Assembly (NCBI GenBank): GCA_036172245.1
Contig: JAYWIR010000005.1
Location: 2,418,001-2,482,000 of the forward strand
Length of the DNA: 64,000 nt
Direction: 5' to 3'
Source of the DNA: Raillietiella orientalis
Taxonomy: Eukaryota
The position numbers were made by a program, and so were the translations under genes. The notes beneath the pieces are model-generated. The model worked only from the letters and a program-made list of their open reading frames with translations. It had not been told where the DNA came from and made no database searches. How positions within the stretch are numbered: position 1 is the stretch's first letter; each line of letters starts with the position of its first letter. Below, piece by piece: positions 8,920 to 48,019 of the stretch.

Positions 8920-10686
8920 ATCTGCCAATAACCCAAGCTTCAAGCGCGCCTACGGAGAAAAAGTTTATCGAAACCGCAGAAAGAGAACTGGGCTGGCAGC
9001 TAGTCAGAGCCAAAAAAGAGAAAAAAAACACGCATGTCCCAAAGAAAGGAGATAAGGCGGTAGCCGGAACAAAAGCTCAATTCGTGTCGCGCGTAAAAAC
9101 TCTCCGAGAATGCACAGTGACGCTGGAGCGCACTGACATTCCCGCCGACACCACCCGAGGCGATACGGCTTCGATCGATTTTCCCGCCGCGACGAATGCG
9201 CGCCAAAATCCATCTCCTGCTTGCGAAGAGGGTCAGCCGGACGACAAACGCGCCGAAACCAAGGATCCAGCCTTCAAGAAGGCCGCCGAAGAGCTTGCGG
9301 CAACGCTTGCTGAATGCGAGAAGCATTCGCGGAAGGGGTTCCGTAGGCAGCCAGCGGCTAAAATGGCCCCCCCAGTTAAATCGGATCGGGAGGCCGGAAG
9401 TGCATCCTGTTCTGTGTAAGCACCACCAAGGGAAGCGGGGCGAAAATCCCAGAAACCCGGATGGTGCATTTCGCCTCCGCGCGAGGGGATCCAATGGAGG
9501 AGGAACCAGTGGATGGCAGCGAGGGAGCCCAAGTCGGGCATCACCCACGTCCGGAAGCCGACGAGGGGGCCATTCCGATGGAGGAGGGTAACCAGGGGTC
9601 AGCAATGCCCCCTGAAACCGCCGAATATGAACCACCCGCACCAATGGATGTGGACCAACAGGTACGAGCAACACCCCCTCCGCACGGGCAGCCGGAGACG
9701 TCGGCACGTAAGAAGGATGAGGTGTTGGTGGGCAAGACGCCAACCCCGTCCAGCGACCCGCCTCAAAAGGTGGCGGGAGCTCCACCGCCAGGTTCCCAGG
9801 AATAACACCTGGACTCGCCTGTCGCCGTAGGATCCGTGCGGCAAGTTGGAATGTCAGCGGGCTGCGCGAAGACGGAAACAGACGAGATACAGCCGCCACC
9901 TTGCGAGATTTCGACCTGTAGCTTTTGCAGGAGATCCACGTGATCACCGCAAAAGACGCCCTGAAGATCGAAACGATCGCAGGAGGGCGGTTGTACTGGC
10001 GATGCGGCGCCCGCAACACTTGTGGGGTCGCGTTCTTTCTGAAGCCAGCCATTAACGCGGCCGTGAAGGGCGTAAACTTTGGGGACGACGGACAGAACGG
10101 CCAATTGATTCTCAGATGGTCCGATTCGATCGACCTCATCGTCACCAATGTGTACGCTCCTAGCGCTAAACAGGGATACGAGCAGCACAACGCGTTACTG
10201 GAAATCTTGAAGCGCCAATGGCTGGTGGACGCGGACGTTCGAAAGGCGCATCTGATAGCAGGGGATTTCAACGTCCGTCTGCTCTCAGACCAGCCCGGAG
10301 CCCAGGGGAACGCGATCAACGAGTTTTGCGCTGCCATGCGCGCGCGCAACTTGTTGACAGAAATAAGCGGGATGGTCAGCAGCGTGGACCACGTCTTTCT
10401 CGACGGAGACCTGTGCACACGGGTCGGAAAACGAGGGACACTTGGACCGACGCTGTCGGACCATTCCCGGTTATTATTCGAGATGCGGCCGCGCGACAAG
10501 GGACCGCCATCCAGTGATTAGCGTATGCCAGGGGACTAAACGCGCCTGTCAGGAGCGAAAGAACATCATCGCAAATTCCTGCAAGGCGTCACCTCCAGAG
10601 ACTCGTGGATTGGGACCTATTTAAGAACTCGGTCCGGGAGTTCTGCGAACAGTTCCCTGTGCAACGTCTGCCCCGAGGACACGGCG
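8920..10686 (+). mobile_element. Retrotransposon F1, left segment (5'-truncated in ORF1; APE and linker to LPRGHG); host of B1
   Basis: Homologous to 36156-37500; ORF1 ends GSQE* at 9805; APE ORF 9925..10521 (LQE, NVYAP, GDFN, VDH, SDH). Confidence 0.85.
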
Positions 10687-10893
10687 TTATCACCCGGGTA
10701 CGCCTGGGGCGTTTATTAATAAACTCTACATGCGTGGTAAAAGGCTTCACCACGGCCGTAAACACAGGACCTGTCGGGACACCGGGACGCAGCCCGGCGT
10801 GGCACTCCCCGACAGCGAAAGGGGATAAGGGGAAAAAACAAAAAGAAAAAAAAGAAATAAAAAACAAAAAGTGTTTGGAGGGCAGGGTAGGGA

Positions 10894-13046
10894 TCACTGG
10901 TCGCTGTAAGGAGGGCCCATCCTTCGAAGAAAGCCCTCGATGTATATCCGCATATGACCCAACTGGGGCCATCCAGCAGCTCTCCGCAGAAAGCGTTGGG
11001 CATATGGGATGACATCCCTCGCGTGTTGACCCACTTCTTCGTTGTTGGCGTCGCTCCATGCCGCCACGATGCCACGGACGCAGCACAAGCCTGCGATGGC
11101 TGCGGCTGGCTGCAGTGCGTCCTTCACGAAGAAAGGCCGAAGAACGTCTCTACGGGAACTGCCCATAGGGAGACCGAGGATCGTCCCAAACCGTTCTTAT
11201 AGGGATCATAGAGCAGCACAGTCCACAATAAGGTAGGAGAGCGATTCAAGATCTCCGCACCTGACACACGCAGGATCCACAACTCCTCTTGTCCAGTAGG
11301 AGCGGCGTGCGTTGCAGGGTAAACCCCAATGCCACAATAGCAACGCCGACTCTTGCCACTTGAGGGGCAGGATCCTGGATTCCTGAAGAAGCGGGGGCCA
11401 CTTCAGCACATCCATAGGGATGGCCAGCAGCTCGCCCCATCTTTTTAGTCCTCGCGGCTGGACGCTCGGGGTCGTGGCGTCGGCCAGTTCTCCTGTTGTC
11501 CAGCCGCTGATCAATTTTTCGCGTCCCTCGATGCAGCAGGAGACTTGCCACCTTGGCGTCCGGCTGCTGTGCAGTGCCCTCCTCAGGAAGGGCAGCATCG
11601 TAGCCAGGCAGGTCGTCTCTGCCCACGTGCTTCTTGCTGGACACTCTAGGAGATTCTGCAGCGTGCAGCGGGCGTATTGGCTGCATCAGAGACGATTCCA
11701 CGTTTCGTAGCTCCTCTGGTTAACCGCTGCCCACATTCCAATGTTCTCCTCCAGCCAGGCGGGGGAGTTGGCGGGGCAGGAAACTATCTTGCTGTTCTCC
11801 ATGGCCAACGATGCCATGCGCCCGAGCAGTAGACCGCATCTCCGAATCTTCCGGCCAGGGCACAGAAGAAATGACGCGTGTCCCTCGCACCGGGACACAC
11901 GACTGGCGAGGAGGCGAGCCGGAATGCACCACGGGGTGCTTTACATCTTCGCTGCGATGGCGAGGGTACGCCATTGCACCTGTTTCTCCACGCGCTCCAG
12001 CGTCAGGAGGCTAAGTCCGCCGTCCCGACGAGGAGCGCAAAGGTCCTTCAAAGGGACTCAGGTCCTCCCCTTGCCCCAAAGGGCGATGCGGAGGAGGTAG
12101 TTCGTCCTCTTTTTAACAACTCCTGGGTCGGGGCAAACAAAAAGCAAGGGGCGGAGGATGAGGGCGGCAAAGGCGTTCTAAACAGCGGCCCGTTACGGCA
12201 AGTGAAACTTGCCTTCCAGGAACGGGCTGATCGCCGTCTCGACTTTTTGGAGGCAGCTGGACCACGCTTTCGCAGGGGAGTAGTCCCCCAACGGCACACC
12301 AAGGTACTTGGAGCACCTCGCCGTGGGGATCTCCAGACGGACCCAGTCCTGCTGCCCTGCCCACGCCGCACCTATTGGCACAACCGACGACTTCGCCCTG
12401 TTAACCTGCAGTCCGGTCCCGCGGCTGAGCAGATCGAAGAAGTCTCCGGCTACGTTTGCCGGGGTGGACATTGGCAACAAGAGCAGAAGATCGTCGGCGT
12501 ACGCTGCTACGGCGGGCGTGCCGGGGCACGAGCTCGGCAAGGGGGCCAAACTCATCCTGTACGCTCTCAGCACCAACTCAAAGTAGGTGCTGAAGAGCAG
12601 GGAGCTGAGGGTATCTTGCTGCCTTATGCCCCGCCGCACCGGCACGCCATTCACCTTGTGACCGCTGATATAGACCGTAATCATCGCATTCCGCCAGCAA
12701 GAGCGCAGGTAGGAAATCAGGGAGTGTGGGAAGCCCATGCGACGCAGGAGCTCCAAGAGTAGTTCCTGGTCTACACAGTCGAACGCCTTGTGGAGATCGA
12801 CTGCTAGCGCTAGGGCCCCCTTGCCCGCCAGGGCTCCCTTCCCAGCCTGGCTGGCGGCCCCAATGTGGGGTTGCCGACTTTCCCTATCCCTTTCTTCTCT
12901 CTTCTCTGCGGGTGCACCCATGTGCTGGCGAAGAAGGTTGGCATCCATACTTCTCCCAGGAACAGCATAAGTGTGCTCCGGGCTAATTACGGATTCTGCC
13001 ACCTACCCCAGACGCGAAGCTTATAGCCCTGCTATCAACTTGGCGT
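10894..13046 (-). pseudogene. B1 ORF2 3' piece (RT from DAKL to the CCHC finger), degenerate
   Basis: ORFs 12193..13002 (DLHKAFD, YADD), 11206..11598, 10894..11166. Confidence 0.88.
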
Positions 13047-13134
13047 GCGGACGTGCTTTTGTAGCGCTCCTCTGCGCCTGGTGTAAAGCGTTTGGTTTCT
13101 TTTGTGTTTGTGTGTGAAGCATCTGCGGTGTCCA

Positions 13135-15154
13135 ATGGCAGAAATGCCTGAGGACATCGCGATGGATATAGGACGGAGAGAGGCTTGCTCCTCTCCCCAA
13201 CCCACGGAGGTGGGGGCAACCGCTTCCACGGAGGCGACGGCAGCCGCACCCCTGAAAAAGGGGGCAACCGCCGCCTCGGAAGCGAGGGCAAAGGCCCCCT
13301 TGAAAAAGGGGGCAAAAGCCCCGCTGGAACAGGGTGCAACCGCCCCCTTGAAAAAGGGGACAACCGCAACCCTGGAAAAGGGCGTAACCGCCTCCTTGAA
13401 AAAGGGGGCACCTGCACCCTCGAATGCGTCTTCGGCATCGCCGAAGACCTGGAGTTCAGTGGCTGCAGCCCCATCTCCTGCAGCCCTCGCCGAGCAGAAA
13501 GCCTACCTAGAGCACGGATACAAGCCGTCCCTGATATACAAGGTAGGCAATCTGTTTGTTCGGGAACACCGCTCGCAACTTCGAAAGGGAGTTGCAGCGG
13601 TTGAACGGAAAAGAGGAAGACCTGGAAGGTCTTTCCGTGTTGAGTGGTGGTCAGCGGGTGGAGCTGACTTGCAGAAATGCAAGCCTTGCTCAACACCTCC
13701 TGAATACGCCAATCACACTGGAAGGCCGAAAAGTTTTCCCGGTAACGGAGGATCCCTCCGTGGTGACGCACATCACGGGAGTCACCCTCCGCATGTCGAA
13801 AGCCGACGTGCAGGAGGAAATCGGAAAATACGGAGCGGTTCACGCGCTATGGCCCAAGCCCAACTTCCAGAGTTACGGAAGACTGTTTAGTGGCATGGCT
13901 GGTGCGCGTGTAACCGTCCACGAAAACGGTGGGCTACCCCACAAACTAGACGTCGGCAACGAGACCGTCGACGTCTGGTACGTGGGCAAGCCCAAGTACT
14001 GTGGACACTGCGATGCAACACGGCACCTGAAGAAGCGGTGCCCTCACATCCAGTGTTTCCACTGTGGAGAGAAGGGCCACCTTTGCAAAGTGTGCCCGAA
14101 GCGCGAACCCCCGGCTCCCGCTGCCTTGTAAAAGGCCAAAGGGAAACGCGCGGGGGCTACGGAAAACCCTGCGAAGGCACCCTTGAGGCGGAACCCACAG
14201 CCGGAGCCCGAGCCCGTACAGCAAACGCCGGTCGTGGAATCTACAGACGACGCTAAAAAGAGCGAAGGCTGGCAGAAGGCGAAGCCTAAAGCTAAGAAAC
14301 CAAAGAAAACCGAAGGGTCGACAGCGGAACCCGCGACGTGTCCTTTAAATAGGAGACAACGCCGCGCGTTGATCCGCGAATGTTCGGTCGCCTTGGAGCG
14401 TGTGGAGGTACCCGAGTCCGCCACCGGGGGAGATATCCCCCGCGTCGACGCCGACGATAACGCGATCACGGAAGGCGAACCCTCTGTGCAAACAGAGGGG
14501 GAACCGCGCGACGCGCTCGCCGCGATCGACGAGGTCGCCTTCCAGCAGGCGGCGGAAGAGCTCGCGGCCGAACTCGCCGACCGTGAGAACGGCGCGCGAA
14601 AGGCCTTGCGAAGGCCGGCCGCGACCAGGGCACCTCCGACAGGTGACCACGACCCGGACGCCGGAAGTGCGTCCTCCTCCACGGAGGCGCCTCTGAAGAA
14701 GACTGGACGGAAGTCCAAGAATCCCAAGAGGCGCATCCCGACGAAGAGCGAGGGGGACGCACCGGCAGCCGAAGGGGAAGCCGGCAGCGTGGAAACGGAG
14801 GGAGGAATTTTCCCACCCTCCGCCACCGAGCAGCCGGCCACCCCCATGGAGGAGGGGAAGCAGGTAGGGCATTGCTTCCCCCTTCCACCGGTGGAGCCTG
14901 CGGAGAAGATGGTCATGGAAGAGGGGGAGCAGACAGCTGAGAACCGCTCCCGCCTGCCGTCCAACGCAGTCAAGGAATCGGTCCCCATGGAAGACGGGAA
15001 GCAGGTGCGTGAAGCATGCTCCCTTCAACCGTTGCGGTCCGCCGAGGAATCGGCCCCCATGGAGGTGGGAGAACCGCTGGGCGGTGCCCCCATTCCTCCA
15101 TCCGTCCCGCCTGACCAGGTGGCGGGAGCCCCATTGCCACTTTCCCGGGAATAA
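13135..15154 (+). pseudogene. D ORF1, gag-like (two CX2CX4HX4C knuckles, basic then acidic tail); frameshift and stop
   Basis: ORFs 13102..13890, 13556..14131 (CGHCDATRHLKKRC, CFHCGEKGHLCKVC), 14183..15154. Confidence 0.88.
13245..13412 (+). repeat. 24-bp coding minisatellite in D ORF1 (about 7 imperfect units, APLKKGAT)
   Basis: Recurring GCAACCGCCCCCTTGAAAAAGGGG variants. Confidence 0.85.
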
Positions 15155-18100
15155 CACCTGGGCTCGCCTGTCGCCGTCGATTGCGTGTGGCATGTTGGAA
15201 CGTCCACGGGCTGCGCGACGACAGCAACAGACGGGACACGGCAGCCACCCTGCGTGACTTCGACCTGGCACTCCTGCAGGAGATCCACGTGATCACCGGG
15301 GAGAACGCCCAGGAGATCGAGAGGATCGCAGGGGGGCGGCTGGTGTGGCAATGCGGCACCCGATACACCTGCGGCGTCGCGTTTTTCATGAAGCCGGCGG
15401 TCGACGCTGCCGTGAAGGGCGTGCGCTTCGACGAAGCCGGTCGTGTCGGCCAGCTGATTCTCAGATGGTCCGACACGATCGACCTGGTCGTAACAAACGT
15501 ATACGCCCCGAGCGGTTATAACAGGTACCGGGAACTCGCGGCGTTCCTGGAAAGCCTGAAGCACGACTGGCTGGTGGAAGCGAACGTGCGCGTGGCTCAC
15601 CTGATAGCGGGAGACTTCAATGTCCGCCTGCTATCAGGTGAGCCACGCACACAGGAACGGACGGCTAACGAGTTGTGCGCTGCCATGCGCACGCGCAACT
15701 TGTTAGGAGAACTTCCGGAAATGGTCAGCAACATCGACCACGTCTACCTGGACGTCGACTTGTGCTCGCGGGTCGGCAAACGGGGGAAAGTTGCGTCGGA
15801 ACTGTCTGACCATTCCAGATTGATATTCGAGGTGTGCCCGCGCGACAAAAGACCCCCGTCCAGGGCGTGGCGGTTGCCTGGGGACTGGACGCGCCTCTCA
15901 GGTGCGAAGGAACACCTTCGGGAATTCCTGAGAGGCGTCACCCTCCGCAGACTCAAAGATTGGGACCTCTTCAAGGCCTCGGTCCGCGAGTTCTGCGAGG
16001 AGTTCCCCCTGCACCGCCTGCCCCTCGGATTTGGGGAGGAAGCTCGGAACCATAGGGCCTATTTACAGGCCCGCCGGTACGAGAGGACCCCCAATGTCCG
16101 TCGCCTGGCAGAGTACCGAGCCGGGGCCGAACGTCAAGCCTGGCAATCCGGATCGGCCAGATTGCTGGACGACCAGGGCCGGGAGCACTCGGCTCCGGCT
16201 GGAATACGGCACCTCGTGCGGCGTTATCATTCCTCCCTTTACACCAGGGCGCCCCCGGACCAAGATGCCTCTCGGCGCTTGCTTCCGAACGGTACCCTGT
16301 CAATAGGGGAGGAGGAGAAGGAAAGCCTCGACGAGCCTTTTACCACCGGTGAAATTCTCACCGGTATCAAAAGGCTCAAGAGGCGGAAAGCACCAAGGGA
16401 GGAAGGCCTGCCTGCGGAGTTTTTTCAATGCTCCGCGGCAGAGTTGGCACCCCTGGTGCTTGAGTTGACAAGGCTGATCCGAGATGAAGGCGATGTACCC
16501 GTGTCGTATCGGTCAGCCAGAGTGAGGCTCCTTCCGAAAGGGGGAGACCTAAGGAAACTCAGCAACTGGCGTCCGATCACAATTGTGAACACGGACGCCA
16601 AGTTGATCGCCGGACTGTGGGCTTCGCGTCTGGGGCAGGTGACCAATTCCATAATTAGCCCGGAGCAGACTTACCCTGTTCCCGGGCGAAGTATGGAGGC
16701 CAACCTCTTCTTCCCGAGCACATGGTTTCATGTGCAGAGTAGTAAAGAAAAGGAAGATAGAAGGATTGGCAGCCCCGCTTTGGGGGCGTCAGCCGGACAG
16801 GGACAGGACTTCCAGGTGGGGAAGGGTGCCTTAGCGATCGCAGTCGATCTGCATAAAGCGTTTGACTGCGTGGACAAGGATCTCCTGCTGGAGCTGCTGG
16901 GACGCATGGGCTTCCCTCCCTCCCTACTGACCTACCTGCGCTCTTGCTGGCGCAGCGCACTGATCAATATCTCTTTCAGAGGTCAAATGGCGTACGGCGT
17001 GCCGGTACGGCGGGGCATAGGCAGGGCGACAGCCTCAGTCCCCTGATCTTTAGCACCTACTTTGAGTTGGTGCTGAGAGCGTATAGGGTGACGTTGGCCC
17101 CCTTGCCGAGCTCGTGCCCCGGCACGCCCGCCGTAGCAGGGTGCGCCGACGATCTTTTGCTTCTGTTGCCGATGTCCACCCCGGCGAAGGCGATCGGGAA
17201 TTTCTTCGATCTTCTTAGCCGCGGGACCGGACTGACGGTGAACAGGGCGAAGTCGACGGTGGTTCCAGTCGGTGCGGCGTGAGCTGGGCAGCAGGACTGG
17301 GACCGCTTGGGGATCCCCACGGCGAGGTGCTTGAAGTACCTCGGTGTGTCGTTGGGGGATTACTCCCCTTCGGATGCGTGGTGCGGCTGCCTCCAAAAAG
17401 TGGAAACGGCGATCGGCCCGTTCTTGGAAGACGAGTTCCTGCTTCCGGAATGGGCCGCGGTGTGGAACTCCTTTGCGGCTCCCATCCTCCGCCCTCTGCT
17501 TTTTGTTTGCCCCGTCCCCAGAGACATGAAGAAAAGGACGAGGACCTCCTGAGGATTGCCCTTTGGGGAAGAGGGAGGACCCGAGTCCAGTTGAAGGACT
17601 TGTGTGCTCCACGTCGGGATGGTGGTCTGGGCCTCTTGTCGGTGGAGAGAGTAGAAATTTAGCTGCCATGGCGCACCTTGGCCATCGCAGCGAAGTTATG
17701 GAGCACCCCATGGTGCGTTCCGGCCCGACTCCTTGCCAGCCGTGTATATGGAACGGAGGGTCTCGCGTCTCATCTTCTGTGCCGCGGCTCGAAGATCAAG
17801 AGATGCGGACTCCTCCTGGGACGCATGGCAACTCTGGCAAAGGAAAACGGCTGGATGGAATGCAGCCCCGCCAACTCCTCCGCATGGCTGGAGGAGACCG
17901 CTGGCACGTGGGCGAAGATAAACCAGAAAAATGAAGAGATGTGGAACTGCCTGCGACGCGGCGCCTATTCCCGCTGCACTCTGCGGAAGATACTTCAGTG
18001 TCCCGCGAGAAGCACGTGGGCAGAGACAACCCCCCTAGCTACGGCGATGCCCTTCCTGAGGAGGGCGCTCTCCAGCAGCCGCAAGCCTAGGTGGCAAGTC

Positions 18101-18739
18101 TCCTGCCGCATCGCAGGCAAGGAGAAGTTGATCAGCGGCTGGTCCACGGGTGAACTGGCGGACGCCAGTACCCCTAGTGTCCAGCCGAGAGAGCTGCAGA
18201 GATGAGGCGAGCTACTCGGCATCCAGCCGGATGACCTGAAGTGGCCCCCTGTATTAATTTGTTCTAGGATCCTCCCCCTGAACTGGAAGGAGTCGGCGCT
18301 TCTGTTGTTGCATTGGGGTCTACCCTTCAACGCACGCCGCCACCACTGGACGAGGGGTCGAGTAGATCCTACCTGCATCAGGTGTGGGGAACGGGAAACT
18401 CTCCCCCACCTCCTTGTTGATTGTGCTGCACTCCGACCCCTGTGGGAACGTCTTCGTGCCTCCCTACGGATCCAGGAGGGCAGCCAGCCCAGAGACGTTT
18501 TTCGGCTTCTGTTCGTGCATGATGCCCTGCCTCCAGCCGCTACCCTGGCTGCACTTTGCTGCGTACGCGGGATTGTGACGTGCTGGAGCATCGTCGGAAG
18601 ACCGAGCCACGACAGGGATGCCGTCGTACTTGCAGCCCGCTACCTGCGGATTGTGACTAGATGGCCCCCCCTGGGAATTATACGGACGGACCTCGAGGGC
18701 ATCCTGCGAAGGATGGACCCTACTCCCAGTGGTCAGTGA
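15154..18739 (+). pseudogene. D ORF2 APE-RT-CCHC with frameshifts and stops; YADD mutated to CADD
   Basis: ORF 15181..17046 (CWNVHG, LQE, NVYAP, GDFN, IDH, SDH, DLHKAFD), 16944..17282, 17678..18205, 18305..18739. Confidence 0.9.
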
Positions 18740-18943
18740 TCCCTCCCCAACCCTCCCAAATCTTTTTGTTTTGATGTTTTATTTTTCTTTTTGTTTTTTC
18801 CCCCACCCTTCCGCTGCCGAGGAGAGTCGCGCCGGTCTGCGTACCGGCGACCCAGCAGGTCCAGATGAGTTGGCCGTAGTGGGGCCTCGTACCACGAATC
18901 AAAGAGAATTTTTAATAAACGCCCCGGCGTGACCGGGTGGCAA

Positions 18944-19939
18944 CTATAAACTTGGCGTCCGTATTCACGATGGTGATCGGACGCCAGTTCTTTCAATCCT
19001 TGAGGTCTCCCCCTTTCGGAAGGAGCCTCACTCTGGCTGACCGAAACGAGGAGGGAACATCGCTTTCGTCTCGGATCAGCCTGATCAACTTAAGCAGAAG
19101 GGGTGCCAGCTCTTCCGCGAAGCTCTGAAAGAACTCCGCGGGAAAGCCGTCTTCCCCTGGAGCTTCACGCCTCTAAAGCCTTTTGATACCGGCGAGAATT
19201 TCGTCGGTGGTAAAAGGGTCGTCGAGGCTTTCCATCTCCTCCTCCCCTAGTGCCGGGGCGTCATCCGGAAGCTAGCGCCGAAAGGCGTCTCGATCCGGGG
19301 GCTGTCTGGCGTAAAGGGAGGAATAGAAACTCCGCACGAGATGCCGTATTGACGCCTGGGACGAACATTCCCTGCCCTGGTCGTCCAGCAAGCTGGCCGA
19401 TTCGGATCGCAAGGCTTGGCGTTCGGCCCTGGCGCGGAACTCGGCCACGCGACGGACATTAGGGATTCTCTTGTATTTGCGAGCCTGTAAGTAGGCCCGA
19501 TGGTTGCGAGGACCCTCGCCGAATCCGGGGGGCAGGCGGTTCAGGGGGAACTGCTCGCAGAACTCAAGGACCGAGGCCTTGAGAAGGTCCCAATATGAGA
19601 GATTCTGGAGCGTGTCGCCTCTCAGGTATTCGCGAAGGTGTTCCCTCGCACCTGAGAGTCGCGTCCAGTCCCACGGCGGACGCCAATCCCTGCATGGCGG
19701 TACCTTGTCGCGAGGCCCCATCTCGAAAATTAGCCGGGAATGGTCCGACAACGTTGACGCAACGCTTCCCCGTTTGCCGACCCGTGAACACAGGTCAGCG
19801 TCGAGGAAGACGTGGCCGATGCTGCGAATCATTCCCTTCTCATCCGCGAACAAGTTGCGCGCACGCGTGGCGGCGCACAACTCGTTCATCGCGTTCTCTT
19901 GTGTTTCCAGGTCTCCTGTTAGCAGGCGGAGATTGAAAT
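18944..19939 (-). pseudogene. B1 ORF2 middle piece (APE FN to RT DAK)
   Basis: ORF 19272..19946 is nearly identical to the start of 3207..6350. Confidence 0.88.
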
Positions 19940-20252
19940 TTATCACCCGGTCACGCCGGGGGGTTTATTGATAATAATTAACTGGTCAGGGACAATGTCC
20001 ACAACCAACAGTACGACAGGAAAGATAGAAAAATTTTTGGCACGCAGGCCTGGTAAACAAACCGCTCGCAGCGTGGGAGGAATGAGGGGAAAAAAACAGA
20101 AATCAAAAACTGGAGGGAAAGGTGACGGGTTTTTGGATAGGCTCCGTACTCACGGGGATTTATACGATGAGCACATGAAATGTTTCGGAGCCTATGGGGA
20201 CGCGGGTGTAAAAAGAAAATCCAAAATTAGTTTATGGAGGGTAGGGCAATCA

Positions 20253-22108
20253 TCACCGGGCTAGCCGCTGCTGAGCGTATCTAAACCGGCGGTGTATTGC
20301 GGCGAGATTCCTTTTTGTCTCCTCTGTCGAATGAGGCCATCTAGCGAATGCTCCAGCGTAGAAGAATGCTTTGCTGATTACCTCTTGGTGCTGTCCGTTG
20401 ATTACCAACGCCTGGCGGACGGAAACTATCGCGCGTATGCACCTGATGGTTGCATTCCTTGCGCTTAGTGATAGCCCGCTCGGCGTGAAGAATCGTCGCA
20501 GCAAGTCTCTTGCGGTGTCCACGGGATGCATTATTAGTGTTGCCAGCCTACGCCACAGTCCATGTAGGACACCGCAGTCCAGAAGTAGGTGCGGAATCGA
20601 CTCCGTCGATCCGCACCGAACGCAGTTCGCAGACGCAAGTCCCCCGGAGTCACGATGCCAACGCTCGTTGCACTGAAAACCCCAGTGAACGAAGAGCAGC
20701 ACGGCTTGTTTCCAAGCAAGGGGGAGCAGCGAACTGTCAATACACTGTGGAGGGACTACAAGTTCTTCGGGGGTGACAGCAAGTTCTTCTGCCCACCGGA
20801 GGAGTCCCTTTGCAGTAACACGAGGAGTGGCGGCGTCCGCCAATTCACTCGTCTTCCAGGCGCCAAGGAGTTTCGTTTTTCCCTCTATGGTGCAGGAAAC
20901 CTCCCACCTCGCCGGTTGGTAACTGTCGTTTCTCGCCCTGAGGGCAGACAGCGCTGCGGCAAGAGGCGTGGCAGCCAGGGTAGAAAACTTCACCTCGTCC
21001 TGCAGTACTTCTTCCAAGGATCGTGGAAAAAATTGGCGCAGGGGGCGAAGATCTTCAGGGCGTATACCTTGGAATGCCGCCCAGGATTCAACAGACTCCT
21101 GCCGCCAAGCTTTAAAGTTCATTGGGCGGCAGGAAATCCACTAGTGTGCTTACAGAAGTGCGGTCAACTGCCGCAATGGAAACCCGAAACCCCGCTTCCT
21201 GTATTGAGTGCCCGGCAAAAGCGAGAGAAATCCTCCGCTGCCGGCGCATCTCCGCAGGAAAATGCGTGCTGGCACACACAGGGGGGATGTCCCTAGCTGG
21301 GCACACAGTGCCAGCAGTCGGAACTGCACCTTGAGTCCGATTCGCTGTATTGTCAGGATACCCAAACCAGCATCCTGACGCGGAGCTAACAAATCTTTAA
21401 GGCGGATCCTGGATCTCGCCGGACCCCAGAGAGCGTTCCTGAGCAGGCGCTCAGCTTGCTGTTTCGCGGCATAGGGAAGGTCCAAAACAAAAAACAAAGG
21501 ACAACGGAGGGGGGCCACAAAGGTGTTCCAAATAGTCGCCCGTTCCTGCAAGGAAAACTTGCCGTTTAAGAACGGGCTGATGGCCAACTCTGCTTTCTGA
21601 AGACAGTGCGCCCACGCTTCGGTTGCGCCGAAAGCGCCCAACGGAACGCCAAGGTACTTAAAGTACCCGCCCGTGGGGATACCCAGGCGGATCCAGTCGG
21701 ACTGCCCCTCCCACGACGTTCCCACAGGAACGACCACGCTCTTCTCTCTGTTCACGCTCACGCCCGCTCCCCGACGAATCAGGTCGAAGAAATCCTCGAC
21801 ACTGGACGCCGGGGTTGACATGGGGAGCAGAAGAAGCAGGTCATCAGCGTAGGCTGCCACGGCAGGCGTTCCCGGGCAGGAGCTTGGCAAGGGAGACAGC
21901 GTCAGCCTGTGTGATCTTAGCACCAACTCAAAGAAAATGCTGAAGAGCAACGGGCTTAAGCTGTCGCCCTATCGGATGCCCCTACGAACGGGAATACCAT
22001 ACACGTGGCAGCCGCTGAGAGTGATGGAGGTTAGCGCGTGGCGCTAGCACGCGCGCAAATACAGCAGGAGTTGCGGCGGGAACCCAAGGCGTTCCATAAG
22101 CTCCAAAA
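20253..22108 (-). pseudogene. A2 ORF2 3' piece (RT C-half, CCHC finger)
   Basis: ORFs 21150..21950 (YADD) and 20253..21122, highly similar to A1. Confidence 0.9.
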
Positions 22109-22220
22109 GCAGTCGAAAGCTTTACGTCAGCTAGAGGGGACGTGTTTTCTCGGTGCTCCTCGTGCCGGGAACCGTCCCTAGGTGTAGGCTTCGTGTGTGG
22201 TGGTGGTCGATCAGGCAGTA

Positions 22221-23939
22221 ATGCCTGACGCGTCCACCAGTACGTGTAAGGGGGCGGTGGCAACGTCGCCTCCTGAAGAAATGGAGTGCCAGGTGGCGGC
22301 GGCAACGTCGCCTCTAGAGAAGGTGGAGCGCCAGAGGGCGGCGGCAACGTCGCCTTCAGTGGCGAAGGAGGTGGGGGCGTCCGCCCCTACAAAACCGGTC
22401 CCCGCTGCAGCGCGAGCGTGGGGCGCCGTCGTGTTGGCGCCATCGCCTGCAGCCGCGGCGGAATTATCTGCCTATGTGGAAGAAGTGTATAACTCATCAC
22501 TATTCTAGAAGGTAGGAAATTTGTATTCTGCTGAGAGTGCGCGCGCCTTTTCGAAGGGGATGTGCGCTCTCGATGTTTAAGAAGAGGAGCTCTGCGCTAT
22601 GACCATTCGTAGCGGGGGGCAGTACGTAGAGGTGATCTGCAAACATGCAGATCTGGCCCAACGTCTGCTTAAAACCCCCGTGGTAATGGGGACACGCAGG
22701 CTCGTTCCCGTAACGGCGGACCACAGTATGGTGGTTCACCTTTTAGGAGTTACCGCGGGGATGCATAAAGAACAGTTACGCGCCGCGTTATGAAAAGAAG
22801 GCACGGTCCATGCAGTATGGACCAAGCCTAGTCCTTTCGAGGACTATACCACAGTTCAGTGCGGCCTCACGGCTGCCCGTGTAACCGTTCGGGAGGGCTC
22901 TACCCTTCCCCACAAACTGGTGGTCGGCGGAGAAAGCGTCGACCTCTGTTACGTGGGGAAGCCCAAATACTGTGGCTTCTGCAGCACGTCGACACACCTC
23001 AAAAGGAGGTGCCCCAACGTACAGTGCCTGGTATGCGGGACAATGGGCCACACGAAGGAAGTGTTTCCACAATCCGCTGTGCGCGTGGTTTCCGCGAGGA
23101 ACCTAGAAAAACGCGCGCGGCTGCTACAGAAAAAACTGGCGGCGAAGGCTGCCGCTCAAGTTGTGCCACCCACTCCCGTGGTATAGGCCTCAGCCGACAC
23201 CCCGGCAACGAATGCCGAAAAGATTGACAAAAGCGCTCAGGTGTTGGAATGGCAAGAAGTCACAGCGAAAAAGAATAAAAAGTCGAAGAAAGAACGACGA
23301 ATCGAAAAAAAGCTCGCCTACCAAAATAAAAAACAGCGGGTTAGCGAGAATTGAAAAGAATGCAGCGTTGTCGTGGAACGCGTCCCCACCGAACGCCGCA
23401 AGGTAGAAATCGCTGCTACCGACGAGCAACCCACTGTTGAAAATGTCAACAGCGTGGGGAGCGAACCGGCGGAAGCGTCCGTCATCGAAACCGTGATCGA
23501 TGACGCCGCCTTCAAGCGTGCGGCGAAGGAGCTGGCTGCATCGTTGCAGCCAGACCCCTCCAAGGCTGGCAAAAAGGTAGTGAGGCGTCCGGCCTCCACC
23601 GAGGAGTCGGTAACTTCCGACCCCGAAGCGCAGGCCGGAAACCAAGTTTCCATCTCCGCGGCACCCCGCCGTCAGGCTGGAAGGAAGTCCAGCAAACCCC
23701 GGAAAGCCTTTCTCCAGGTCGAAGGCGTGGAGATCACTTCCGACTGCGAGGGTGCCATGAGCGTGGGAGAATCCCAAGAATCGTCACCCGAGAGACCACC
23801 ATGCACTGACACGGAGGAGATGGAGGGGGTTGAAGCCGGAAAGGTACCCAAGGTGCCTGAGGAGGCTGAAACCCTAATGGTCATCTCACCCGCCTCGGAA
23901 GAGGCGGGTTCCCCCACACCGTCATCTTTCTGACAGTAA
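22221..23939 (+). pseudogene. C1 ORF1, gag-like, many stops; 42-bp N-terminal repeat (AATSP) at about 22253-22360
   Basis: CGFCSTSTHLKRRC, CLVCGTMGH; ORFs 22197..22508, 22920..23186, 23373..23933. Confidence 0.82.
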
Positions 23940-26900
23940 TGCCGATAATCTGCTCCCGCCGTCGTCTGCGCATCTCCGTTTGGAACGTGAACGGCATGAC
24001 AGACGCCGGCAGGAGACGAGACATGGCCGCCATTTTAGGATCGTCCGACCTTGTGCTGCTGCAGGAGATCCATGTGATCTCTGCACAACAAGCGCAGGAG
24101 ATAGAACGCATCTACGGAGGGCGGCTGTGGTATCGGTGTGGAACATCGAGAAGCTGTTTTGTCGCCTACCTGCTACGGCCCGCCATCGACGCCGCCGCCC
24201 GTGGAGTTCGGTTCGACGATCACGGTCGTGTCGGCCAGCTGACTCTCAGCTGGTCCGACTCGATCGACCTGATCGTTACGAACGTTTACGCCCCGAGCGG
24301 AGCGGACCTGACGAACAGGAGGGCCAGGAAAGAATTTTTCCTTGCCCTCCATCGCGACTGCTTGACCGAGGCAGGCGTGCGGAATGCCCATCTGGTTGCA
24401 GGCGATTTTAACGTTCGTCTGAAACAGGATGGGCCGAATCACGATCGGGACCTGGTCAACAAGGTGTGCACGGCGGTGCACACTTGTAATTTGTTGGCCA
24501 GTGTACCAGGGATGGAGGACAAAATCGATCACGTGTTCCTTGACGAGCACCTGTGCACTCGTGTGGGTAGGCGCTGCAAGATGCCGTGCGAGTTCCGACC
24601 ATCGACCAATCGTGGTTGAAATCCATCCGCGCGACAGGGGCCCCCCCCCGTCAGCGTGGCGTTTGCCAGGGGACTGGCTGAAGCTCCCAGGCGCGACGGA
24701 ACATCTTCGCACGTTTATACGGAGCTCTAGGATGCAGGCACTTCAGGATTGGGACCGCTTTCAACGGTCGGTGCAGGAGTTATGCGACCAGTTCCCTCTG
24801 CACCGCCTACCTGCGGGATTTGGGGAGGGGGTACGTAACGAACGAGCCTATCTGCAGTCTCGCCGTTACGCCAGGACCCCCGACATCCGCAGGCTGGCGG
24901 AATAGAAAGCATGAGCCGAGAGGCAAGCCTGGCAGTCAGGATCGGCCACCTTGCTGGACGATCAGGGCCAGGAACATTCGACCATCGCTGAGATCCGCGG
25001 TCTGCTACGGCGTTTTTACTCCTCCTTGTACGCAAGAACGCCTCCCTAGCGGGATTTATCACGAATCCTGCTCCGAAAAGGCGCTCCTGCGATCGGGGAA
25101 GAGGAGAAAAAGTCCCTCGACAAGTCTCTTACGATGGGCGAGATCATCTCGGCCATCGGAAAGCTCAAGAGGCGAAAGGCTCCAGGGGAGGACGGCCTCT
25201 GCGCGGAGTTTCATCAAACTTTCGCGGCTGAGCTAACCCCCCTGGTACATCAACTCACCTTGCTGATACGCAAGACAGGTGACGTTCCCGCCTCGTTTGG
25301 TTCGGCAAAGGTGCGTCTTCTCCCTAAAGGAGGAGATCTGAGGAGCATGAACTAATGGCGTGCCATCACAATAGTGAATGCGGATGCCAAGTTGATAGCT
25401 AAGGTTTGGGCTGAGCGTTTTCGACGGGTTGCAAACGTCTTCATCAGCCCGGAACAGACGTATGCTGTTCCGGGGCGAAGCATGGAGGCAAACCTGTTCC
25501 ACGCTTCCACCTGGCTAGAGCTGCAACACGAAAGGGGCTTGATGCGCACCGGGAATTCCGGTGTGTCCGTCAGTCATGCGACGGAGGGTCGGATGGGGGA
25601 GGGAGCACTTGCGGTTGCTGTCCACTTGCGTAAAGCATTCCACAGTGTCGACCAGAATCTCCTGCTGGAGCTTTTGGAACGCTTGGGCTTCCCGGCCTCA
25701 TTATTGGCCTATCTGCGCTCAAGCTGGCGCGATGCGCTAATCAATGTTACTTTTAGCGGGCATACTGTTCACAGCGTGCCGGTGCGACGTGGAATCCGGC
25801 AAGGAGACAGCCTGAGCCCCTTGCTCTTCAGTACCTACTTTGAGTTGGTACTGAAAGCGTTCAGGGAAATTCTAGCGCACCTGCCACATGAATGCGCCGG
25901 AACGCCTGCGGTTTCAGCATATGCGGACGACCTCCTGCTACTGCTCCCTATGTCGACCCCGGCTTTGGCGGTCGAGAAGTTCTTCGACCTGCTGAATCGA
26001 GGAACCAAGCGTACGGTAAACAGGGCGAAGTCGTCCGTGATGCCAGTTGGTGCGGCGTAGGCAGGGCAGCAGGACTGGGTCCGTTTGGGGATTCCCACGG
26101 TGAGGTACTTCAAGTACCTTGGTGTGCCGTTGGGGGACTACTCCCCTGCAAAAGCGTGGTCCGGCTGCCTTCAAAAAGTAGAGACGGCTATCGGCCCGTT
26201 CCAAATCGGCAGGTTTTTCCTGCCTGAACGGGCCGCGGTTTGGAACACGTTCGCGGCTCCTCTCCTCCGTTTCCAGCTTTTTATTTGCCCTTTCACAGAG
26301 AGAATTAAAAAGCGGACAAAGGACTTTCTCCGTATCGCCCTTTGTGGCAACGGGAGGGCCCAAGTCCGCTTACAGGACTTCTGCGCTCCTCGTCGGGACG
26401 GTGGTATGGGCCTCCTGTCGCTAAAGCGGCTAAAGCTTCAGTTCCAGTTCCGATTGTCGGCACTCGTTTCAGAGTTGTGGTGAACCTGTTGCTGCGTTCC
26501 TGCACGTCTCTTTCTCCAGCAAGCCAGAGGCAAGACGGGACTGACCTCGTTTCTTGCACTCCGTCGCCGGGTCAACCGATGCGGACTCCAGCTTCGGAGG
26601 GTGGCTGCGCTGGCAAGGAAGAATCAAGGATGGATCACCTGTCTCCCCGCGAACGGTAGTGCCTGGTTGCAGGAAACCGTTCGTACGTGGGGACCGTTCG
26701 GCATGCAACCCACCCATTAGGAACGAAGGTTCCTGTTTGGGTGTTACAGAAGTTGCACGCTTCGCGAGAGCCTCGAGGATCCTAAGAAGAGTGCGTGGTC
26801 AGGAAGAACCCCCCTCGCTGCTGCGCTGGACTCCCTAGTAAAACACCAGGACAGCGATGTCGCGGCGAAGTGGGAGGTTACAATAGAAATCTCCGGGAAG

Positions 26901-27518
26901 GAGAAGAAGCAGAGAGAGTGGAAGACGGGCCAGCTAACTGATGCTGCGACCCCGAGTACGCCTCCTAATAAACTTCTGCGCTGGGGAACGCTGCTGGATG
27001 TTCCGATTGAACATCTGAAGTGGCCCCCGATTCTTATGAACACTTCCATCCTCCCCCTAAAATGGCAAGAGTCGGCATTCCTGTTGCAGCACTGGGGACT
27101 CCCCTGCAACGCCCGTCGACACCACAGGACCTGGGGAGCGGTGGATCCCAATTGTGTAAGGTGCGGGGAACGGGATTCCCTTCCCCACCTCCTAGTGGAT
27201 TGTGTTGTCCTTCGGCCCCTTTGCTTCCGCTTTGCCGCGGCCATCGGTATCCCTTGCAGCAACCCCAGATACGCACTAAAAGCCTTCTTCATTGTCGACG
27301 CCCTGCGGCCAGCGTCCTCGATAGCAGATTTGTGCTTCCTTCGTATGATCGTCGCCGCCTGGAGCACGGCGACGGGAGGACCTAGCGATCAGGACGCCAT
27401 CCAGTGCGCCTCCCAATTCCTGAGGAGGGCGTCGCAATGGCCCTAATTGGATGTTCATAACAAACAAGAGCTTGTCAGCATCCTGAGAGGGATGATGCGG
27501 CCAAGGCAGCATCAGTGA
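23939..27518 (+). pseudogene. C1 ORF2 APE-RT-CCHC, degenerate
   Basis: ORFs 23939..24619 (WNVNG, GDFN, IDH), 25374..26060 (QGDSLSP, YADD), 27036..27446. Confidence 0.9.
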
Positions 27519-27736
27519 TCCCTTCACGTTCCCTCCCACCCTTTGTTTGTTTTTGTTTAGTTTTTTTGTTTTTCCCCTTTCCCCTGCTGCCTTGGTGGAC
27601 CGTACCGGTCTAGAAACCGGTGAATTAGCAGACTCCCTGGTTCTTAGCTTCTGGCTGGAGCATTGCCACAGCCATTAATAATTTCTTTATAAAGTTTATT
27701 TTTTTAAAAAACGACCCTTAGAAATCCGGCTGAAAA

Positions 27737-29454
27737 TCGAACGCCTTGTAGAGATCGATTGCGACCGCCAACGCACCTGGCGTTCCCTCCTGCCGTCGAC
27801 GCCTGTTCTTTTTGCCTGCGGCAGTGACTTTCGCAGCAGTCTGGCTTTGCTGCGCCACAACTTCCTGCAGCTGCATCCATGTACGCGCGAAAAGGATGTT
27901 CGCCTCCATGGATCGTCCCGGAACCGCGTAGGTTAGTTCCGGGCTCACCACAGATTCCGCAATACTTCCTAACCGCGCGACCCACAGCTTGGAAAACAAC
28001 TTGACGTCCGAGTTTACCAAGGTGATCGGACACCAGTTGTTAAGTTGACGCAAGTCTCCGCCTTTCGGCAGGAGACGCACCTTCGCTGAGCGGAAGGAAT
28101 CCGGGACATTCCCGGATTCACTCATCAGCGTCGCGAGTCTCAGCATCAAGAAAATGAGCTCCACTACAAAGCACTGATAAAACTCTGCAGGGAGCTCATT
28201 CTCGTTTGGCGCCTTTCGTCACTTCAGCCAAGCGATGGCGGACGAAAATTCATCCGCCGTGAAGGGCTCGTTGAGACTTTCGCGTTCCTCCTCGCCGACA
28301 ACACGAGCATCCTGAAATAGGAGTATCTCAGAAAGAATATCCTCCGTCGGGGATTCCGCGTACAGCGAGGAGTAGTAGCGTCTCACAATGCGGCGTACTT
28401 CGGCTGGGGCCGAACATTCCTGGCCGTTGTCGTCCAACAGGCATGCTGCTCCGGACTGCCAGACCTGGCGCTCGGCCCTCGCCTTGTACTCTGCGAGACG
28501 CCCGACATCCGCGCGTCTCGAAAACGTGCGGGCCTGCAGAAAGTCTCTACTGTTGGCCACGCCCTCTCCGAAACCGCGTGGAAGCCGGTGCAAGGGGAAT
28601 TGGCAGCAGAACTCGCGGACAGATCTTTTGAGATCGTCCCAGTCCGCAAGTTCTTGAATGGCAAAGCCTCGGAGGTATCCACGTAGATGCTCCGCAGCCT
28701 CCGGTTGGCTAAGCCAATCCGCCTGCATCCTCCAGTTTTGCAACGGAGGCCCCCTGCCTGGCGGAAGGATCTCAAACTCCAACCTGTGGTGGTCAGAAAG
28801 CCTAGTCAACAATCTTCCTCTCCTACCCACACGCGAATGCAGGTTTTTATCGAGGAAAACGTGATCGAGCGATCATTTTATTCCTGGTTCGCTGACCATC
28901 ATGTTGGCAGCGTGCACGGACGCGCACATCTCGATGGGCAGCGCGCGCTCCCTCGGGCGGCTCCAATCGTAGGAGAGCAGGCGGACGTTGAAGTCCCCAG
29001 CGACGAGGTGCGCAACTTGGTAACCGGAGTTGTTGAGCCAGTGGCTCTGCACCTCACCAAAGAAAGCTACTCTTTCTTCGAGGTAGCGAGAACCACTCGG
29101 CGCGTAGACGTTCGTAACGACGAGATCGATGGACTCGGACCACTTGATGACAAGCTGGCCTATCCGTCCGTCGTCATCGAAACGAACACTACGCACCGCT
29201 TCCGCCATTTTTCCTCCTACGAGGAACGCGACGCCGCACGTGTGTGCGCCGCCGCACCGCCAATGTAGCGTTCCGCCTGCGCGCTCCTCGATTTCGGCTG
29301 CCTGCTCGTCGGAGATTACGTGAATCTCCTGCAGGGGCGCGAGGTCGAAGGGGCGCAGGGCGTTGGCTACTAACCGCCTCTTCTCGTCGTTCTGTAGTCC
29401 GTTCACGTTCCAACACGTTACGGACAGACGACGAGAAGACGCGATTCCCTGCAT
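27737..29454 (-). pseudogene. A2 ORF2 5' piece (APE, linker, RT to KAFD)
   Basis: ORFs 28873..29454 (MQGIASSRRLSVTCWNVNG), 28219..28830, 27718..28164. Confidence 0.9.
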
Positions 29455-31400
29455 TACTGCTGGGAAAGTGGCCGCTTTTTGCTCGCTTTATCCGGAGAGC
29501 AGACGGCGAACAGCACGACTGGCTGGAGGGGACGGTCGCCACCGTGTTCTGTCGTGCTGCATGCATGTAATGCCTCCACGCCAGGCTTAACTCCGTCGGG
29601 TTTCGTGGAGACTTCGCGTTGCTTCGCGGCGAGCGTTGCCTGGCTGCCTACTTTTGATCGGCGCGCACACGCTTTGGAACGAGTTGTCCCCGTCTCGGTG
29701 ATCGGAACGGCATCCATTTCGGAGTCCGACCGGCGCATGTTCGATCGGGTTTCGGCCTTCCGCGAAGTAGTGACAGGTTCTGCTGGATTAACAGCTGTCC
29801 TGTTGTCGTTTTCCGTCAACAGAGCATCGCTTTTGGTGACGGCTGCTTTCCCGGCACGCGGGTTTTCAGGGTGCTCACGCACAGCTGCACGAGGGACCTT
29901 TGCTGAAGTCTTCTTCACTTCATTACGGTTCCTCACTCCGCGTGGCGACGTAAATGGAGATTGTGCTCCATTGCCATCTTTGAAGCCATCCGCGTCTTTG
30001 GACGAGAGCACTTTCGATGGCTCCGGCACGCTCGTCATAGACGCTGCCTTCGGAAGGGCTTTTAATCTTTTCGTTGGCATGGCATCCGCGCCAGTCGAGA
30101 GCTTGCTCTCCGACAGCGACGGCGTGAGATTTTTCTCCGTTTTCGCGGTGTTGGATCGCGTAGCGGATTTTCTTTTGCCGACTTTCGAAGTCGACACGGC
30201 ACAACCCTTCTTACCCGACTTGGTCTTTTCACCCACTGCAGCAGGTGAAGAAATGGATCTGATGGTACTGGAAGTGTCCTTACCGCCGTTGTCCATTGGC
30301 GTCCCCGCCGGTTGCTCGAACTCCGAGAGAGCCGGGCGTGCTTGGAAAGGACAGCTATTGCGCCTAGGGGGACTTACCATTGTCCCGGATTCCCCGCACC
30401 CTTTCCTTTGCGGCTCCCCTGCCGCGAGAGGGGGCGCGCAGGGCATCGCGTGCGAGGTTTCCTGCTGCTTTAAAGCGACATTTCGCCTAGCGTTTCTACG
30501 GAATTTCTGCCGTAGGGTCTCCAGGTTTTTCGCAGATTTTTTCTTTTTATCCACGCTTTGTTTTTTGAGAAGGAGCTGCGAGGCTGCCTTTTTTCGCAAA
30601 AGATCCGGGCAATTTTTCAATTAGTGCACGGATATTTTGCAATAACGGCATTTTCTAGAGGGGCATTCATCCAAACAATGCCCCTCCTTCCCGCATTGCT
30701 CGCACGTTCTTACTTTGCCCACGAACCACAGGTGAACGACCGTGTCTTTCACATGTAGTTTCGTGGGCAGCAGACGGCGGTCCGGCATTGTAAGCCGGAC
30801 TTCAGCGACTCCGCTGTGTATGGACGGGAAGTTCTTGAGCTTGCTACGCACCCACCAGAGCGCATGGACCGTGGCGAATTTCGCCAACAAGTTCCGAATA
30901 TCAATATTTGAGATTTGCGACTCGATGTCGAAAATTTCCGCCACAAATGAGTCGTCCATAGCGGCCGCGAAGACCTTCTTGCCACGGATCGACAACGGGG
31001 TACGCAGCAAGCGTTGCACAAGTGCAGCGTCTTTGAAACGCACCTTGAAATAGTTCATATCTTTCACGGTCGTAATGACGAGGAGGTCCTCCTCTCGCAC
31101 GCCAACACGGGTCAGTTCATCTTTGAACTGATTCCCGTCGCGCGCAGAAAGAATTCCACTCACCTTATATCGGAGAGCAGGTCTATAGCCTTGGGCTACG
31201 TATGCCCGCAACTCTGACTCGTCGAGTGGTTTCCCTTTGACGGCTGCTGTGGCAGCAACGTCAGCAAAACTCCTCTCCATTGGCGAGAAAGACGAAGTGG
31301 AGGCGGCCGTCGGTTCCGCGATTGCAGATCCGGATGCTGTTCCTCCAACTTCAGTATCTTCATGTTGGGTCGATATCGTCGTCAAAATGTACGACGCCAA
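29454..31400 (-). pseudogene. A2 ORF1, gag-like (about 648 aa) with a single in-frame TAA in the second knuckle
   Basis: 30621..31400 and 29454..30620 are contiguous in frame; CEQCGKEGHCLDEC, CRYCKISVH*LKNC. Confidence 0.87.
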
Positions 31401-31454
31401 GATGGAGCGGATGAAAGCACGGAGACGAGAGCGAAGAAAAACACGTCCGCACCC

Positions 31455-48015: not shown

Positions 48016-48019
48016 AAAA

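Follow-up and report, generated by a model that had tools for sequence, protein, structure and literature searches.

That a retrotransposon RNA can carry over a piece of its target is already known from R1 and R2; here, the subject is extended to L1-like long interspersed nuclear elements (LINEs) that target each other's coding motifs. The stretch analyzed—64 kb of contig JAYWIR010000005.1 from Raillietiella orientalis, called the window in the following—consists almost wholly of retrotransposons that lack long terminal repeats (non-LTR) and are nested within each other, as seen by self-BLAST, by mapping onto one full-length copy, and by tblastn with the open reading frames (ORFs) of that copy (B1, 54689–60356). 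The main subject is the 5' end of one of these elements, C1, whose first 17 nt are foreign to the element that hosts it. In our reading, such deviant "5' copies" of a target site duplication (TSD) came with the element RNA and are not host sequence duplicated at insertion; we put the probability of this at roughly 0.55. An earlier note on the same sequence had proposed a wider model along these lines, in which transcripts start in the flank and carry the previous target along, and its interpretation as a whole is partly supported.

Full-length R1 RNAs of the melanogaster group are described with 7–28 nt of upstream 28S sequence, which becomes visible at ectopic or rearranged junctions; R1 also makes a 9-bp target deletion and forms tandem copies by re-insertion into the TSD (PMC2718515). 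Measured against that description, C1 likewise belongs to a site-specific LINE of the apurinic/apyrimidinic endonuclease (APE) type and bears a 17-nt carried piece of target, its deletion of 16–19 nt resembles the small R1 deletion that takes the place of a TSD, and two B copies in the window, B1 and B2, form a tandem 10 nt apart. Unlike in R1, the target is ORF2 of other LINEs instead of ribosomal DNA, the clade is L1-like, and the piece at C1 is not confined to sequence upstream of the deletion but extends over the part downstream of the nick that is equivalent to a TSD. In addition, the C, E, and B elements lie antisense to the host ORF—which makes co-transcription with a host gene unlikely.

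For R2, a ribozyme leaves up to 36 nt of upstream target on the RNA, and this stretch is thought to anneal and thus to give uniform 5' junctions (PMC3774820). As far as that account goes, C1 would be a single case of the same retention of target sequence at an RNA 5' end. R2 differs by its restriction-like endonuclease and by an RNA end that stems from a hepatitis delta virus (HDV)-like ribozyme on an RNA polymerase I co-transcript. At the locus described here, in contrast, C1 was joined without homology, and the Rfam scan yielded no family that reached the gathering score anywhere in the window, while 22000–22500 contained no relevant match at E ≤ 1; hence, an HDV-like ribozyme finds no support in that scan.

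The internal promoters of other LINEs offer a second comparison. In Pr77 of L1Tc, a CGTG-containing downstream element at +25 to +28 is essential, and the LINEs jockey, Doc, G, I, F, SART1, and TRAS1 bear a downstream element at a constant +28 to +32 (PMC4748587). A short CGTG-containing block conserved at the 5' end is what the elements of the window have in common with these published insect and trypanosomatid cases. There, the start is described as the first base of the element; here, the motif lies 6–11 nt in, and equal spacing would put the start in the flank.

New HeT-A copies carry a tag of their neighbor. A HeT-A copy is driven from a promoter in the 3' end of its upstream neighbor (PMC5537684). 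HeT-A differs by its head-to-tail arrays at chromosome ends and bears no internal target motif, whereas the flank here is a coding motif of another LINE. Zepp and Zepp-like L1 elements of green algae are described as inserting into copies already present and thereby forming GC-rich clusters, with 61% GC in C-169 (PMC8226300, PMC3446292). The window is a GC-rich nest of L1-type LINEs as well—a likeness to the published descriptions—while the parts of these descriptions used here contain neither several families with separate motif-level targets nor 5' leaders.

The 5' junction of C1

The features needed for this junction are as follows; family letters follow the earlier note where they could be matched.

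22110–27736, plus strand: C1, a full-length C-family LINE inside A2, with 5' untranslated region (UTR), ORF1, APE, reverse transcriptase (RT), and a 3' stem-loop ending GGCTGAAAA
19940–31454, minus strand: A2, host of C1, itself inside B3 at the APE GDFN site
18–2441: ORF of A1, the sister copy of A2, uninterrupted across the C1-type target
1025–1043, minus strand: uninterrupted site in A1, of which 16 (+3) nt are absent from A2 at the C1 5' junction
22110–22126, plus strand: C1 leader, CAG plus 14 nt of TSD-like length, RT KAFD-site sequence foreign to host A2
22127–22137, plus strand: start of the C1 element proper, TCAGCTAGAGG, 11 nt before the motif and similar to the leader lengths of A (6), B (10), and G (10)
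22138–22144, plus strand: C1 motif GGACGTG, core of the conserved 5'-end block
27737–27750, plus strand: A2 flank 3' of C1, TCGAACGCCTTGTA, sole host copy of these 14 nt
53860–53876, plus strand (antisense to RT): KAFD site of RT lineage H, closest match in the window (15/17)

The leader reads CAGTCGAAAGCTTTACG and is the antisense of R-K-A-F-D-C. With up to three mismatches, this 17-mer has eight matches in the window where 0.2 would be expected, and the other seven all lie at RT KAFD sites. It differs from H at two positions, from the host family A at four, and from six other lineages at three—including C3, whose KAFD site lies at 41437–41453—and it matches none of them exactly. All three A copies read GCCTTGT where the C1 leader reads GCTTTAC. 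Against the 3' flank in A2 itself, 5 of 14 positions are mismatched, which has P ~1e-3 at 6% divergence, with a local A1/A2 divergence of 4–5.5%. The earlier note was hence right in assigning this flank to the KAFD motif of a lineage other than host A: the first 17 nt of C1 are the KAFD target site of a non-A lineage, and as the KAFD sequence of a non-host RT lineage, they would therefore have travelled with the element RNA.

Also the loss of about 16 host nucleotides claimed there is borne out. A2 lacks GAGCTTCTGGTTTACG (A1 1028–1043), i.e., 16 nt, or 19 nt if the following CAG is counted as incoming. A2 runs ...CTCCAAAAG up to the junction, followed by CAGTCGAAAGCTTTACG, TCAGCTAGAGG, and GGACGTG, whereas the uninterrupted A1 continues ...CTCCAAGAG GAGCTTCTGGTTTACG CAG TCGAACGCCTTGTG... 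The 200 nt on each side of the junction are 94.5–96% A-like. A longer host alignment across the junction was tried in place of the deletion and rejected, since only TTTACG would align. C1 is without a true TSD because TCGAACGCCTTGTA is the only host copy of these 14 nt.

The extent of the foreign piece is informative as well. Its KAFD-like part stops 14 nt past the nick—TSDs in the other families measure 9, 12, and 15 nt—and a C element sitting in a different host would be expected to have a 5' TSD copy of just this form, CAG plus 14 nt from the nick, the 3 nt being flank. The join itself was non-homologous, at the cost of 16–19 host nt; the proposal that homology favors 5' joining thus fails at C1.

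A possible course of events can be outlined. The RNA behind C1 would have begun in the flank of its source copy, 27–28 nt upstream of GGACGTG, and would have carried 3 nt of flank and the 14-nt 5' TSD of that copy as a 5' transduction. The top strand might then have been cut or resected at a point 19 nt upstream of the nick, and the full cDNA attached to it without the help of homology. In the lineage of B and E, an earlier capture would have become fixed in the element and outlived a change of target, leaving a relic in B. Initiation would be directed by the GGACGTG block to a point upstream of the block, either at the element boundary or beyond it. If this holds, the mechanism by which R1 and R2 RNAs bear target sequence at their 5' end extends to L1-like elements with a promoter of their own whose targets are LINE coding motifs. 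It would also be a case of an internal promoter that initiates outside its element, and leaders would trace the source host lineage of a copy and the timing of target changes.

5' ends of the A, E, G, and B families

Element 3' ends were read as GGGT-N3-4-AA to set the TSDs. The 5' ends that serve for comparison are as follows:

13032–13055, plus strand: E 5' junction with the 15-nt TSD copy CTATCAACTTGGCGT, of which the final 8 nt are homologous to the B leader; GC and GGACGTG follow
18944–18958, plus strand: E 3' TSD copy, CTATAAACTTGGCGT, 14/15
42992–43008, plus strand: G 5' end in C3, 10-nt leader CGTACAGTGC plus AGACGTG
54699–54715, plus strand: B1 5' end, CTTGGCGAGT plus GGACGTG
60363–60379, plus strand: B2 5' end, same 17 nt as B1, 10 nt past the B1 3' end (tandem)
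33760–33776, minus strand: B3 5' end, same 17 nt as B1, in host F

A2 bears a 6-nt leader, GGGTGC, before GGACGTG at 31442–31448, and its TSD ATTTCAATC is identical in both copies (9/9; 31455–31463 and 19931–19939). The TSD of E, CTAT(C/A)AACTTGGCGT, agrees at 14 of 15 positions; CTAT at this site is unique to B3, hence both copies derive from B3. For G, a TSD of about 12 nt follows from a loose end at 19938 in sequencing run X1, which gives the 3' flank of a G-type copy. The question whether a 5' repeat matches the element lineage or the empty host site is thus answered differently within the window: C1 carries non-host sequence, while A and E show host-identical TSDs. A donor- or lineage-derived origin of the 5' sequence accordingly stands for the 17 nt of C1 and, as a fixed relic, for B, and does not for the symmetric TSDs of A and E. 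In A, B, and G, the leader is not homologous to the target of the respective family. In E, leader and target are identical over 8 nt and the junction is seamless, whereas C1 was joined without homology.

The invariant leader reported for all three B 5' ends is real: TCCCTTGGCG occurs exactly three times in the window, each time at a B 5' end (54696, 60360, and 33779 on the minus strand). However, taking it as a TSD copy was a boundary error. The 3' flank of the B copy at 10683–33785 reads GTGTCCTCGGGGCAG, and a true TSD copy of the B target was rejected for TCCCTTGGCG as only TCC agrees with the host. Beyond TCC, CTTGGCGAGT matches the B target at about 4 of 10 positions by manual count, which is near chance. 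CTTGGCGAGT forms the first 10 nt of B and is invariant in 3/3 copies that otherwise differ by 7–15% and lie in different contexts (host H, the B1 tail, and host F). On sequence grounds, CTTGGCGAGT is B's own inherited 5' end and does not derive from host sequence. The common upstream flank of B1 and B3 was also considered as donor-derived and dismissed: the two flanks are just moderately similar by eye, as for two host lineages at one site.

CTTGGCGAGT is homologous to CTTGGCGTGC of E, where 8 of the 10 nt double as the end of the real TSD of E. The combination CTTGGCG-N3-GGACGTG is found only at the E end and at the three B ends, while CTTGGCG alone occurs 28 times in the window. As the leader is shared between B and E and 8 nt of it equal the target of E, the common ancestor of both would therefore have carried target-identical sequence on its RNA. 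The B leader can then be inferred to be a relic kept after the move to another target. Its ancestral origin may lie either in capture from the target or in a later preference for a matching target.

At the other end of B, two registers can be set. With GATAA as the 3' end, the TSD has 10 nt with 2–3 mismatches (CGCCGAATCC versus CGCCAACTCC; TGCCGACTCC versus CGCCGTGTCC); with GATAACGCC plus three variable nucleotides as the 3' end, the TSD is TCC. Past GATAA, the B 3' ends at 10677–10686 (minus strand) and 60353–60362 (plus strand) consist of CGCC, three variable nucleotides, and TCC, and this tail resembles the sequence upstream of the B target (GCCGAA/GCCGAC plus TCC). The CGCC tail may represent a TSD copy with mismatches, or else target-like sequence brought along at the RNA 3' end. 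Compared with B1, B2 lacks about 320 nt internally at 62523/62540, which corresponds to element positions 2182 to 2505 of B1.

The GGACGTG block and competing readings

As a word, GGACGTG is not enriched in the window (nine occurrences versus 9.7 expected). Its positions are nevertheless as claimed: six of the nine lie 6–28 nt inside 5' boundaries set independently by self-BLAST, the seventh 5' end (43002) reads AGACGTG, and GACGTG is invariant at 7/7 ends. In an alignment of these seven ends, the mean column identity is 60% and the only invariant run is GxG..GACGTG..T, followed by eight isolated invariant columns downstream. The conserved block thus comprises GxG, 1–2 variable bases, GACGTG, and a T-run. 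Measured from the element-proper ends, the motif lies 6–11 nt in (A 6, B 10, G 10, and C1 11), and the foreign piece of C1 begins 27–28 nt upstream of it. A metagenome scan with the conserved 5'-end pattern returned 119 loci, 0 of them related by tblastn/blastn, i.e., chance matches.

Most likely, as far as the alignment can tell, the block is part of a downstream core promoter; with the motif 6–11 nt from the element end, a spacing as for the downstream promoter element (DPE) would put the start in the flank. An adenine at −27 from the motif had been proposed for three ends, and these positions reproduce: the adenine falls within GCAGTC (22111), TCAGC (54682), and CGAGC (33793, minus strand), with G, T, T, and G at the other four ends. 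Yet 3/7 is no more than chance: at the base composition of the window P=0.16, and one target site accounts for two of the three. An initiator at +1 is therefore not seen across the seven ends, where A at −27 comes to 3/7 and CA to 2/7. Suggestive in this context is that the target itself may offer a CAGT at the right distance: the antisense of the KAFD site gives CAGTCGAA in A, B0, and F and CAGTCAAA in E.

Several points weigh against an origin of the deviant copies in the element RNA. The window holds a single C 5' end, at which a fresh capture and a leader fixed throughout the C family would look alike. Although both C insertions lie in A-type hosts, the C1 leader is not of the A type; every RT lineage in the window differs from it by 2–4 mismatches, and it mediated no homologous join. 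A start at the boundary would account for the A and E junctions, and nothing in A, E, B, or G indicates an RNA that started beyond the element-proper end. The junction register of B is ambiguous. Finally, the 27-nt spacing is backed by one boundary, that of C1, with the −27 bases at chance, and the organism may make no use of downstream core-promoter elements.

For C1 itself, one may suppose that the 28 nt preceding GGACGTG belong as a whole to the regular 5' end of the family, with an internal start at CAGT as in classical LINE promoters, and that the KAFD likeness goes back to an old capture or to selection for homology and not to the flank of the immediate source copy. A relic of this kind is the B leader, identical in 3/3 copies, and the C1 leader equals no RT lineage of the window and is least like A, the sole C host type seen; moreover, the 10 nt after the 17-mer match the host at 6/10 positions with a 1-nt shift (manual count), which fits a longer decayed relic. 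On the other hand, the KAFD likeness ends at a TSD-like length and the remainder equals the leader length of other families. A fixed 28-nt leader also predicts a host TSD followed by a pseudo-TSD at a normal insertion, and the case counts a single end (n=1). We hold this explanation for possible, if on the unlikely side. A later rearrangement—a patch taken from a different RT copy by gene conversion or recombination, a switch of template to some unrelated RNA, or a misassembly—appears highly improbable. The nest is rich in RT sequences of 70–95% similarity that are able to recombine, but a patch would need to place 17 nt exactly at the target of C itself, in antisense and beside a 16-nt deletion, while 200 nt on each side remain 94.5–96% A-like. 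A template switch, in turn, needs an antisense RT transcript of this very site, which would be nothing else than the flank transcript of the C source copy.

With respect to the motif, the full model of the earlier note combines an initiator in the flank with GGACGTG as DPE at +28 in all families, so that each RNA carries about 20 nt of the previous target and homology guides 5' joining as a "target memory". The foreign piece of C1 starting at 22110, with 22111 inside CAGT and 27 nt before the motif, speaks for it, as do the CAGT at this distance in the KAFD targets, the 8 nt of E leader that equal the E target, and the existence of DPE-bearing LINE promoters as reported (PMC4748587). Nevertheless, A at −27 is found at just 3/7 ends and CA at 2/7, the only leader to be seen went in with a deletion and no homology at the join, those of A, B, and G are not homologous to the sites at which these families insert, and leaders would stay hidden at canonical sites. 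As a whole, this model is unlikely.

A role of GGACGTG that does not depend on spacing is a serious contender, although we would not bet on it: the motif could be a factor-binding site or an RNA-/cDNA-end signal in second-strand synthesis, and the 27 nt at C1 would be chance. The motif contains an ACGT core, and ACGT cores bind bZIP-type factors. Its distance to the element-proper ends varies (6, 10, 10, and 11 nt), conservation reaches beyond it to the 5 preceding nt and the following T-run, and the spacing statistics are null; either function would explain the conservation of GACGTG equally well. Against this stands that the motif keeps the same relative place at the extreme 5' end despite poorly alignable UTRs—like the core promoters reported for insect and trypanosomatid LINEs. 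A bolder variant of the carry-over reading, which we regard as rather doubtful, is a downstream-only core promoter that has no initiator of its own. The conserved target would supply the start about 27 nt upstream, and every RNA would carry the TSD of the previous target and a few flank bases. Canonical insertions would hide this piece by homology and aberrant ones such as C1 would expose it; captured pieces would at times become fixed and outlive a target change, so that the B leader might be a fossil of the DAK-motif target of E. If so, leaders preserve a readable history of target switches within a guild of retrotransposons that inhabit one another.

Nest architecture and element class

The setting may outweigh the leader: at least seven LINE families, each with its own ORF2 motif, are stacked at least five levels deep in 64 kb. 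The GC content is 53–63% per 2-kb segment of the window, and the nest resembles the retrotransposon clusters at green-algal centromeres, for which the published descriptions, as far as used here, leave the targeting mechanism unexplained. The copies not yet placed are as follows:

10683–33785, minus strand: B3, contains E and A2 and lies in F
8919–10686 and 33777–36101: F, host of B3
13047–18943, plus strand: E, inside B3
54689–60356, plus strand: B1, full-length copy
Junctions over the whole window: 3213/3214, 8918/8919, 10686, 13046, 18944, 19939, 22109, 27737, 31455, 33777, 37500, 39343, 42991, 54688, 60352, and 62702

Each family occupies one fixed conserved-motif site in ORF2 of other copies. 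A-type elements sit at the APE motif GDFN in sense orientation in 3/3 cases (A1 in B0, A2 in B3, and the 5'-truncated A3 in M), and C-type elements at the RT motif KAFD in antisense in 2/2 cases (C1 in A2 and C3 in A3). B-type elements occupy, in antisense, a GFGE site of the hosts H and F, besides forming the one tandem. E lies at TDAK, antisense to the host ORF, G antisense in the APE of C3, N antisense at LQDW, and F in sense at YADD. The repeated arrangements A-in-B and C-in-A do not stem from segmental duplication, which is ruled out by the identities: the hosts B0 and B3 are 89.4% identical while the inserted A1 and A2 share 94.6–96.4%, and C1 and C3 are 83.5% identical while their hosts A2 and A3 share 90.5%. 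As identities of host and insert differ, the nested arrangements are independent insertions.

A search of sequencing runs listed for the stretch one public DNA run, X1 (13% of the words), and no RNA run. Of X1, 414 contigs were placed on the window: eight at 99+% identity, 57 at 95–99%, 158 at 90–95%, and 191 lower. This mixture of identities shows the element families to be multi-copy in the X1 sample. Joints in X1, e.g., from 18939 to 31734 with ATAA between, connect element 3' ends to further ORF positions; hence, there are more target sites than the window displays.

The elements are APE-type, L1-like non-LTR retrotransposons by their RT and APE. Pfam RVT_1 was found in 8/16 long ORFs scanned, with E down to 5e-25, and Exo_endo_phos in the ORFs 15181–17046 and 6641–7678; the order APE–RT was confirmed by tblastn. 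ORF1 has a zf-CCHC match with two visible knuckles. In ORF2, zf-RVT, which would stand for the C-terminal Cys-rich region of plant-type L1, was undetected by the Pfam scan, while PF13966 is present in 7/23 distant database matches. The protein search gave one close relative—a metagenome protein of 68% identity—and others at about 22–27%, which are L1-like.

Element 3' ends are alike in all families: AATAAA-like sequence, a CCCGG/CCGGG hairpin, and 4–5 nt ending in AA or AAA, with no poly(A) tail at any element 3' end in the window. They lie at the following positions:

3185–3213, 6540–6565, 18915–18943, 27707–27736, and 60323–60352: hairpin ends
39344–39373, 19940–19968, 10687–10716, 51715–51745, and 62702–62735, minus strand: hairpin ends

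A hairpin in place of poly(A) suggests that the RT may recognize the 3' stem-loop.

Further observations concern single copies. B0 (3214–6565) and B1 (54689–60356) are 87–93% identical in ORF2, but the 3' tail of B0 differs (GGGTGTAAA), and so does its target, with the 3' junction 6565/6570 in a C-type copy and in sense orientation. That such close relatives have unlike targets hints at something besides slow protein change setting the site. F (8919) and M (36156), which are 85% alike, start at the identical base (ATCTGCCAATAACC) in the ORF1 region without a GGACGTG end, which looks like a 5'-deleted subfamily. The 54 nt before M (36102–36155) resemble the 3' end of a further element and could be a tag or else a very short truncated insertion. 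J, at about 44370–50640 on the minus strand, is a much more distant LINE in the G/K element, with 28% amino-acid identity to B0 ORF2 and long intact ORFs; it ends in an A/T-rich 3' part whose hairpin is unlike that of the others, and the two GGACGTG in J are internal, not terminal.

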